Origin: an uncultured archaeon
GTDB lineage: Archaea > Asgardarchaeota > Lokiarchaeia > Helarchaeales > HEL-GB-B
DNA length: 22,290 nucleotides
Reading direction: 5' to 3'
NCBI GenBank assembly: GCA_964646355.1
Contig: CAZYEE010000025.1
Coordinates: 1 to 22,290 of the forward strand
Shown here: positions 9,096-10,385 of the stretch, piece by piece
Position numbering within the stretch: the stretch's first letter is position 1
Layout of the letters: every line of letters starts with the position of its first letter
Notes under the pieces: generated by a model
Database searches by the model: none
Told to the model about the DNA's origin: nothing
What the model saw: only the letters and a program-made list of their open reading frames with translations
Program-made: the position numbers and the translations under genes

Positions 9096-9102
9096 GGTGA
9101 TC
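9096..9102 (+). promoter_or_regulatory. Shine-Dalgarno-like GGTGATC ahead of the proposed dnaG TTG start
   Basis: ggtgatc (9096-9102) is complementary to the conserved archaeal 16S 3' end (..GAUCACC..). It lies 4 nt upstream of TTG 9107. Confidence 0.45.
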
Positions 9103-9106
9103 AAAT

Positions 9107-10385
9107 TTGACTAATAAAAATTATAACGATTATACTACAACTAAGTATTTAATTACTGCCCAAATAGTGGTCGAAGGTATTGTAGAAAACTTATTTAATA
9201 GTCAATCTATGACTAAGTCTACACAAACCGGATGTGGTTGGAGCCCTATTTGGGCAAACAGAAGGTTTATTGGGTGAAGAACTAGATTTAAGGGAATTAC
9301 AAAGAACCGGCCGTATTGGTAGAATTCAGGTAAATATTGAATCAAATGCTGGAAGATCGGAAGGTCAAATAATAATACCTTCCAGTTTAAACAGAATTGA
9401 AACTTCGATACTTGCCTCCGCAATTGAAACAGTAGACCGTGTAGGTCCATGTGCGGCTAAAATCACCTTAAAACATATCGAGGATATTAGAGAAACCAAA
9501 CGTCGGAAAATAATTCAAAGAGCAGCTGATATCCTAAAGCGGTGGGAGGCCGAAGTTATCCCTGAAAGTCAAGAAATCTCAAGCAGAGTCTTAGAAGAAA
9601 TAAAGACAGGTGAAATTCTTAAATATGGGCCAGATAAACTTCCAGCGGGCCCAGACATTGAAAAAAGCGACGAAATTATTATTGTCGAAGGTAGGGCAGA
9701 TGTTCTTAACTTACTCAGATGTGGGATCGCCAATACCATCGCGGTCCAAGGAACTAATATCCCAAAAAGTATCATCGATATCACCAAAGGTAAAAAAGTC
9801 ACTGTGTTTTTTGATGACGACAGGGGCGGAGAACTAATTCTTAAGGAAATAAAACAGCTTATTAAAATTGACTACATTATTAAATCAATTGAGGGTAAAA
9901 GCGTTGAAGAACTTACTAAAAAGGAAATTTTTAAGTGCCTAAAGAATAAAAAACCATTTAAAGATGAAGCAGAACCAAAAGCTAAAGAAAAAGAAATATC
10001 TAAACAAAAGAAGCCCAAAAAAGAGCCCAAAATAAAAAAGAAAGGTAAAAAACAAGACCTTAAAAAGCAGCCAAAGACCGCCATCAAGGTTAATCATAAA
10101 TTGGTAAATGCTGCCTCTGAAATTAAAGGTTCATTGACTTCTAAGATTTTCGACAAAAATTTTAACATTATTGAAGAAATCGGAGTTATGGAACTTGCCG
10201 AAAGACTTAATGAGATCGATCAACCAATTAAAGCCATTGTTTTTGACGGTGTCGCAACACAACGGCTCCTTGACATTGCTGAATCCAAGGGAGTTGACAC
10301 AATTATCTGTGCTAAAATCAGCAAAATCACTAAAAAACCACATAATATTAATATCATAACTTTCCAACAATTAAATTTAAATTAG
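9107..10385 (+). CDS. dnaG: Archaeal DnaG primase/exosome-associated TOPRIM protein, reading frame interrupted near codon 27
   Basis: Downstream part (track ORF 9234-10385): [98 protein letters not shown]...FFDDDRGGELI, and C-terminal IVFDGVATQRLLDIA. The missing conserved N-terminus [16 protein letters not shown] is encoded upstream in another frame (9140-9187), which opens at 9101 with TTG 9107. The two frames are separated by about 37 nt. Confidence 0.85.
9188..9224 (+). other. 37-nt frame-breaking insertion inside dnaG that folds as a stem-loop
   Basis: Deleting 9188-9224 joins ..GIVE to [14 protein letters not shown], reproducing the conserved archaeal DnaG motif (..EG.[14 protein letters not shown]). 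tgtaga (9181-9186) pairs with tctaca (9218-9223). aaa (9187-9189) is a 3-nt bulge. ctta (9190-9193) pairs with taag (9214-9217). atag (9198-9201) pairs with ctat (9207-9210). Confidence 0.6.

Follow-up and report, generated by a model that had tools for sequence, protein, structure and literature searches.

The window analysed here, 22,290 nucleotides of an uncultured archaeon of the Helarchaeota, in the Asgard group (contig CAZYEE010000025.1, assembly GCA_964646355.1, DNA run SRR7051285), carries a dnaG gene that is split at positions 9187/9225 into two reading frames. The 37 nt lying between the two parts, 9188-9224, are in all likelihood a bulge-helix-bulge (BHB) intron of the dnaG pre-mRNA, spliced by the endonuclease EndA and an RtcB-type ligase. 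This reading builds on the split itself, on BHB geometry at its borders, on conservation of the insert with compensatory changes, on selection in the flanking coding sequence, on a relative that has no intron, and on a tRNA gene of the same contig used as a control. An intron of the BHB type had been suggested in a preliminary description of this DNA, and the geometry at the junction, the covariation and the finding of inserts at the same site in relatives all speak for it.

Past exon 1, frame 0 continues with NLFNSQSMTKSTQTGCGWSPIWANRRFIG and ends in a stop at 9275-9277; in the +1 frame a TGA occupies 9210-9212, after which that frame remains open to 10385. Direct reading and the list of open reading frames (ORFs) agree with the frames, start, stops and +1 opening first reported. 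Deletion of 9188-9224 (37 nt) joins GIVE/KPDVV, the Asgard DnaG consensus, so that the join proposed in the preliminary description is the one found in Asgard DnaG homologues: full-length relatives read ..VEGIVE(K/R)PDVVGAIFGQTEG.. without interruption, and among 35 homologues G27, V29, E30, P32 and D33 are invariant or near-invariant, on both sides of the junction. The predicted spliced product has 413 aa and, along its entire length, shares 59-80% identity with Asgard DnaG. A search with this joined protein returned full-length archaeal DnaG, the best named matches belonging to Candidatus Helarchaeota and other Asgard archaea; the product has Toprim domains, and its best matches are named DNA primase DnaG. 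No spliced full-length version of the window DnaG was present among the protein-database matches listed. The 56-aa read-through ORF of exon 1 matched only itself when used as query; in NCBI it stands as a 'hypothetical protein' of a Candidatus Helarchaeota metagenome-assembled genome. At the nucleotide level, the predicted spliced junction is ...GGTATTGTAGAA/AAACCGGATGTGG... (in a longer form, GAAGGTATTGTAGAA/AAACCGGATGTGGTT), unspliced RNA would read GTAGAA/AACTTATT and TCTACAC/AAACCGG at the two borders, and a circular intron is predicted to have the junction ...GTCTACAC/AACTTATTT...; a peptide such as GIVENLFNSQSMTK would be expected from an insert that is translated unspliced.

Inserts at the same place were then found in relatives. 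Three loci were reached through N-terminally truncated protein matches (P0001, P0002, P0004 and P0005 were among the closest), namely L001 (NCBI GCA_054383595.1), L002 (Logan SRR29366194) and L003 (ENA ERZ27256772), and each has a 31-nt insert at the identical codon boundary, GIVE/RPDV. Two more, L012 and L013, came from a scan of JGI metagenome DNA with the pattern 'exon 1 end, 20-45 nt, exon 2 start'; they have a 37-nt insert at the dnaG junction, and the same lineage was met again in an ENA assembly (L017). With the window, this makes five intron-bearing lineages (window, L001, L002, L003 and L012/L013/L017), which share 68-84% identity in spliced full-length DnaG. The lengths of the inserts over the five lineages (31, 31, 31, 37 and 37 nt) are all 1 mod 3, and the insert in the relatives is thus out of frame, the reverse of the in-frame insertion that the preliminary description had considered fatal to the intron.

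These loci also bear on the most mundane explanation of the split, a sequencing or assembly error of 1 nt in what is really an in-frame insertion of 12 aa, or else a pseudogene left by an inactivating frameshift. The window is a metagenome-assembled contig, and with one A fewer its ORF becomes continuous. However, the same +1 disruption is seen in five lineages at 64-80% protein identity, in assemblies drawn from NCBI, Logan, ENA and JGI that differ in sample and in assembler. The window's own insert recurs unchanged in an ENA assembly (L015, which matches 10.9 kb of the window at 99.98%), and again in a Logan assembly (L016) from 9205 on, where that contig begins. Same-site inserts in five independently assembled lineages remove sequencing error as an explanation, and with it the 1-nt indel of the preliminary description. 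As for decay, nonsynonymous (pN) and synonymous (pS) differences were pooled across six lineages for the last 18 codons of exon 1 and the first 50 codons of exon 2. Exon 1 gave a pS of 0.71 and a pN of 0.13 (ratio 0.18), and exon 2 a pS of 0.68 and a pN of 0.08 (ratio 0.12). Synonymous sites are near saturation, no lineage shows damage to the 386-codon exon 2, and the Shine-Dalgarno-like sequence and TTG start are conserved, the layout GGTGA-N6-TTG preceding exon 1 in L001, L002, L003, L012, L013 and L017 as well. Purifying selection on exon 1 means that this exon is translated within a functional protein and that dnaG is not a pseudogene; the inactivating frameshift, also listed in the preliminary description, is contradicted both by this selection and by the five lineages. 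DnaG, moreover, is present in all archaeal lineages sampled. We therefore regard artefact or decay as extremely improbable.

We next consider the RNA motif. Read 5' to 3', a BHB consists of an outer helix, a central helix of 4 bp, a 3-nt bulge, an inner hairpin, the return strand of the central helix, a second 3-nt bulge and the outer helix again. The 5' strand of the central helix lies in exon 1 and its 3' strand in the intron, and the 3' strand of the outer helix lies in exon 2. EndA cuts between the second and third residues of each bulge (PMC2738675). In the window, this rule predicts cuts behind 9187 and behind 9224, which take out exactly 9188-9224; in silico, its use on all six sequences excises precisely 37 or 31 nt and yields GIVE/(K/R)PDVVGA each time. 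Two 3-nt bulges on opposite strands around a 4-bp helix were found in the window, L001, L002, L012 and L013, the last four having a GUAG/CUAU central helix with AAA and A-N-A bulges. The inner helix h' has 5 bp in the window and 5-10 bp in the relatives, and changes on both sides occur in 4 of its 8 aligned pairs; the apical hairpin is variable or absent in relatives. The dnaG motif is strict on its 5' side and relaxed on its 3' side. All the helices of the preliminary description (9181-9186/9218-9223, 9190-9193/9214-9217 and 9198-9201/9207-9210) are present in the sequence. The same description warned that symmetric cuts would excise 24 nt and fail to restore the frame, a figure that arose because the second bulge had been sought on the wrong, inner side of the central helix, in the 4/3 internal loop. 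In a BHB the 3' bulge is found outside that helix; in this register the cuts remove 37 nt and the objection falls away.

How often such a geometry is met by chance was estimated by scanning the plus strand of the whole window for BHB motifs with a 4-bp central helix containing at most one G-U pair, an inner helix of at least 5 bp, an outer helix of at least 2 bp and an intron of 15-120 nt. At the dnaG junction the scan matched the pair (9187, 9224), where the central, inner and outer helices measure 4, 5 and 2 bp and both bulges 3 nt. Matches of equal or better quality numbered 53 over about 2.35 million position/length pairs, and the chance of a match at the frame-restoring pair is about 2×10−5. 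It is the geometry at the exact frame-restoring junction, and not the stability of the fold, that is non-random. Of the checks proposed in the preliminary description, the BHB scan returned a rare geometry at the junction, whereas folding in silico gave an unremarkable energy, detailed below. A window-wide screen for BHB matches that join two long ORFs returned 90 matches, mostly at ordinary gene boundaries, and was set aside as too unspecific. A covariance model of the element (R1) found no other copy in 110 kb (window and loci), and the element is not a repeated mobile one there.

Covariation was examined in an alignment (A1) of six sequences from the five lineages. Standard pairs occupy 94.8% of its cells. 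In five pairs both partners differ between sequences, as at columns 24/51 and 25/50 (C-G to U-A) and columns 28/47 (A-U to G-C). When the partner was slid by 1-3 columns as a control, pairing was 16-43%, and none of 500 column shuffles reached the covariation score. The exon parts of the motif are fixed in the intron-bearing lineages, which have GTA at the Val codon (ATA in L003), GAA for Glu, and then AAA or AGR.

Compensating changes of this kind within the insert indicate a constraint at the RNA level, and count against the alternative of a programmed +1 ribosomal frameshift, in which exon 1 and the insert would be read in frame 0 up to a shift just before KPDV, giving a DnaG with 10-12 additional aa between GIVE and K/RPDV. 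Some observations do fit such a frameshift. Frame 0 is open from the start codon up to the junction in every lineage, and the length of every insert, 1 mod 3, is what a +1 shift would compensate. An AlphaFold model (mean pLDDT 83, about 95 locally) was available for the intron-less relative and has the junction in a short turn that links strand 1 (residues 17-26) to helix 1 (31-42); taken alone, the structure allows a translated insertion there. In a PDB sequence search, the N-terminal domain of DnaG was not covered by any solved structure. Where a shift could take place is limited, on the other hand, by stop codons in the +1 frame (the TAA that ends the L001 insert, the TGA at 9210-9212 in the window), which leave the last frame-0 codon as the one position open to every lineage. 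The sequences at this codon (ACA-C-AAA, AUA-A-AGG, AUA-U-AGA, AAA-A-AGA and AUA-U-AGG) share no slippery sequence for re-pairing in the P site, and the frame-0 codons in the A site (CAA, AAG, UAG, AAG and UAG) include no conserved stop or hungry codon. The peptides that the inserts would encode in frame 0 are not conserved (NLFNSQSMTKST, NLYLSQIRSI, NLIPDGIRSI, NLNKFRFRSK and NLVILNFLTRSI), in the midst of a junction motif that is near-invariant on both sides, and a frameshift leaves unexplained why the EndA cut rule falls exactly on the junction. A shift near 9221-9225, as envisaged in the preliminary description, has no conserved shift site to go with it. We consider a frameshift very unlikely.

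Another possibility is that the two parts are expressed apart, as a 27-aa N-terminal peptide with a junk tail and an N-truncated DnaG, or that ribosomes bypass the insert by hopping, in the manner of phage T4 gene 60. Gene callers do give a short ORF and a truncated DnaG in the window and in L001 (in L002 and L003, the truncated DnaG alone), and a hairpin follows the last codon of exon 1, as it does in gene 60. Against a split gene, the internal start is not conserved (GTG in PDVVG, TTG in LLGEE, or ATG inside the intron), the internal starts have no Shine-Dalgarno sequence, and each of them would cut into the invariant motif. Against bypassing, the take-off codon GAA has no matching landing codon before exon 2 (CAC, TAA, TAT, AAA and TAT), and the codon that follows take-off is AAC or AAT, not a stop. 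Either version would be a most improbable account of the locus.

A BHB intron remains our preferred reading, and several observations weigh against it. Central helix pairing is imperfect in L003, where AUAG/CUAA forms 3 bp and an A.A mismatch. The outer helix h is weak, with just 0-2 pairs of the A-U, G-U or C-G type (U-A/U-G and C-G/U-A/U-G across the alignment): it is UU/AA in the window and unpaired in L001. The minimum free energy (MFE) of 9165-9245 is −12.6 kcal/mol, with z = +0.5 relative to shuffles; thermodynamic stability was dropped as a criterion for this insert. The free MFE structure favours a register slipped by one base at the A-rich bulge, although the BHB-constrained folds lie within 0.2-1.9 kcal/mol of the free MFE, and this closeness speaks for the intron, as a sign that the BHB fold is accessible. 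The window contains an alternative match (9188, 9223) that would take out 35 nt and leave the frame broken. The covariation sample is small (six sequences, five lineages), and neither EndA nor RtcB is encoded within the 22-kb window. Finally, the 1 mod 3 lengths, together with a frame 0 open through the insert in 3 of 5 lineages, would also fit translation into the insert.

A relative without the insert was identified in JGI data (protein P0003, locus L014, Ga0374082_1747007). Its dnaG reads ...ATTGTGGAA/CGCCCGGAT..., that is, ..GTGGAA/CGCCCG.., with GTG for Val and CGC for the codon after the junction. More distant DnaG genes (41-46% identity; Pyrodictiaceae, Aenigmatarchaeota and others) are also contiguous at the insert site, and the covariance model matches them as contiguous exon flanks of 42 nt; they serve as intron-less controls. 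A neighbour-joining tree of DnaG groups the six close relatives in one clade, supported by 100% bootstrap, in which P0003 is nested. A monophyletic group of intron-bearing sequences to the exclusion of P0003 received 6.8% bootstrap, and a clade that includes P0003 and excludes only L002 received 80.6%. This points, with moderate strength because the tree is a single-gene, neighbour-joining one, to a single gain at the base of a Helarchaeota subgroup followed by a precise secondary loss in P0003/L014.

The same contig offered a control for the cut rule. A tRNA-Val(UAC) gene at window positions 1882-1984 (plus strand) is interrupted in its D-loop by a 29-nt BHB intron, 1897-1925. On the unedited window, Rfam gave a partial tRNA (1919-1976) and ARAGORN none. 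The scanner used for dnaG finds here a BHB made of GUCU (1891-1894) and GGAC (1920-1923) with bulges AGA and AAA, and once 1897-1925 has been removed by the BHB rule, ARAGORN calls a clean 74-nt tRNA-Val(UAC). A D-loop intron that obeys the cut rule tells that this organism uses BHB splicing at non-canonical sites. Such a capacity is consistent with what is described for the group: Asgard archaea reportedly have an (alpha-beta)2 EndA with the L1 (Crenarchaea-specific) loop, which confers a broad range of BHB substrates (PMC5829648), hetero-oligomeric EndA reportedly cuts relaxed motifs outside the tRNA context (PMC2738675), and non-canonical tRNA introns are reported to be very abundant in some Asgard genomes (PMC11291895).

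From these features we infer that cleavage and ligation do occur, through EndA and an RtcB-type ligase, in the following way. The last exon 1 bases, GUAG, would pair with CUAC at the 3' end of the intron, forming a 4-bp helix between two 3-nt bulges on opposite strands, and this core would be flanked by a helix internal to the intron and by a very short exon-exon helix. EndA would cut after the second residue of each bulge, and an RtcB-type ligase would join the exons. The spliced mRNA would then encode the full 413-aa DnaG with its motif intact, and the unspliced mRNA only the peptide of 56 aa. The coordinates of all parts are collected in Table 1.

Table 1. Coordinates of the dnaG gene parts and BHB elements in the window, and of the inserts at the same site in relatives
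Feature	Position	Strand	Basis or remark
Shine-Dalgarno-like GGTGA	9096-9100	+	direct reading
dnaG TTG start	9107	+	direct reading
dnaG exon 1, 27 codons	9107-9187	+	ORF list; matches N-terminus of full-length Asgard DnaG
BHB intron (predicted), 37 nt, AACTTATTTAATAGTCAATCTATGACTAAGTCTACAC	9188-9224	+	boundaries from protein homology and, independently, from the BHB cut rule
dnaG exon 2, 386 codons and stop, ends ...QQLNLN	9225-10385	+	ORF 9234-10385 extended in frame upstream to 9225
Outer helix h, 5' strand UU	9180-9181	+	pairs with 9226-9227; alignment columns 14-15/60-61
Central 4-bp helix, 5' strand GUAG, exon 1	9182-9185	+	pairs with 9219-9222
5' bulge AAA	9186-9188	+	predicted cut 9187/9188; AAA invariant in 6/6 sequences
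Inner helix h', 5' strand ACUUA	9189-9193	+	pairs with 9214-9218
Apical hairpin AUAG / UCAAU loop / CUAU	9198-9210	+	direct reading; in BHB-constrained fold
Inner helix h', 3' strand UAAGU	9214-9218	+	BHB scan comparison, alignment
Central helix, 3' strand CUAC, intron	9219-9222	+	BHB scan comparison, alignment
3' bulge ACA	9223-9225	+	predicted cut 9224/9225; A-N-A in 6/6 sequences
Outer helix h, 3' strand AA, exon 2	9226-9227	+	pairs with 9180-9181
Orthologous insert, 31 nt	L001 2925-2955	+	same dnaG site
Orthologous insert, 31 nt	L002 1116-1146	+	same dnaG site
Orthologous insert, 31 nt	L003 1490-1520	+	same dnaG site
Orthologous insert, 37 nt	L012 799-763	-	same dnaG site
Orthologous insert, 37 nt	L013 1855-1819	-	same dnaG site

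In the annotations, an N-truncated DnaG is called at window 9234-10385, L001 3001-4107, L002 1129-2313 and L003 1563-2675, from starts that vary (GTG, TTG or an ATG that lies within the intron). Exon 1 is called as a short ORF of its own in the window (9107-9277) and in L001 (2844-3008). We attribute this systematic mis-annotation of dnaG at four loci to the intron.

The surroundings of the gene were also compared. Upstream of dnaG lies a 675-nt AT-rich stretch (window 8433-9106); its sole ORF, at 8751-8855, encodes just 34 aa, and Rfam gave no match there. A gap of about 430-470 nt is present at this place in the relatives too, and blastn detected no sequence conservation between the gaps. 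Gene order around dnaG (window about 5600-11150, compared with L001, L002, L003, L014 and L015) is conserved across the clade: a PUA/TGT_C2 protein, NAC, a 93-aa ORF, Robl_LC7, Nop10 (on the minus strand), an 88-aa ORF, dnaG and ribosomal protein uS2. After uS2 comes a radical SAM/SPASM gene in the window, versus an adenosine-kinase-like gene in L001, L002 and L003.

Two neighbouring genes were looked at as candidates for further introns. In the Robl_LC7 (roadblock) gene of L014 (1689-2075), an in-frame TAA at 1899-1901 replaces the Glu/Val codon of the orthologues (..KG-E/V-LQQVL..); the frame is unchanged after it, and the gene caller split the gene into pieces of 70 and 42 aa. As the TAA is in frame, an intron was rejected here; a point error, a nonsense mutation or read-through could be responsible. 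The S2 gene of L003, with an odd end (2739-3462 for 231 aa), was suspected of a second intron and proved to be an ordinary ORF, 2739-3434.

Several known systems resemble the dnaG insert. The cbf5 pre-mRNA intron is reportedly the subject of Watanabe 2002 and Yoshinari 2006, and also of Yokobori 2009 (PMC2738675). In Crenarchaeota (Desulfurococcales/Sulfolobales), this intron is cut by a hetero-oligomeric EndA between bulge residues 2 and 3 (PMC2738675). Both introns are short and break the frame, both have a relaxed BHB and sit in a conserved motif of an RNA-metabolism gene, and both show a patchy distribution with apparent precise secondary loss. The cbf5 intron, however, is supported by cDNA and by in vitro cleavage, whereas splicing of dnaG is predicted, and the host gene and phylum differ (cbf5 in TACK, dnaG in Asgard/Helarchaeota). 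The dnaG insert does not belong to the cbf5 intron family, which is placed at the catalytic Asp codon in Desulfurococcales/Sulfolobales; its host gene is dnaG, in a Candidatus Helarchaeota metagenome-assembled genome. Archaeal non-canonical tRNA introns (hBHBh' or relaxed BHB) have the same motif and cut rule, and presumably the same enzymes; the dnaG insert differs from them in that it lies in an mRNA, without a tRNA body for recognition, and in that the product is an ORF rather than a folded RNA. In Haloferax volcanii, the HVO_1309 mRNA has a BHB intron in its 5' untranslated region (PMC7714728). It is, like the dnaG insert, an EndA mRNA substrate outside tRNA and rRNA; unlike it, it lies in an untranslated leader and interrupts no reading frame, and the host enzyme is a homodimeric alpha'2. 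In eukaryotic HAC1/XBP1 splicing (IRE1 with RtcB or tRNA ligase), a very short structured intron is likewise removed independently of the spliceosome, with a change of frame (PMC13149111 and general knowledge), but IRE1 reads twin 7-nt stem-loops and is regulated by stress, and the resemblance to dnaG is in logic only.

In the searchable literature, cbf5 (coding) and HVO_1309 (5' untranslated region) are the only archaeal mRNA BHB introns that we found (PMC7714728, PMC12397907), and a 2025 paper cites the cbf5 papers only (PMC12397907). No report of an mRNA BHB intron in dnaG, in Asgard archaea or in Helarchaeota was found in this literature, most subscription journals being outside its scope. 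If spliced, dnaG would be the second reported archaeal coding-sequence host of a BHB intron, and the first in Asgard archaea.

A further idea, which we put forward as a rather doubtful one, is that the intron acts as an expression switch dependent on EndA and RtcB, by a logic like that of HAC1/XBP1, and is the tip of a wider, unannotated set of Asgard mini-introns. Were there such a switch, the amount of DnaG, a subunit of exosome and primase, would be set by the activity of the splicing endonuclease; were there such a set, other frame-breaking BHB mini-introns would be present in protein-coding genes of Asgard archaea.

For the clade itself, the consequence is that public records mis-annotate dnaG. 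Scanning Asgard genomes with the BHB cut rule combined with frame restoration could bring more cases to light, and the dnaG junction offers a short substrate, of about 80 nt, for the study of Asgard EndA specificity. If the dnaG intron is spliced as proposed, it would be a second case of apparent precise intron loss, and protein-dependent splicing of mRNA would extend to the archaeal lineage closest to eukaryotes.

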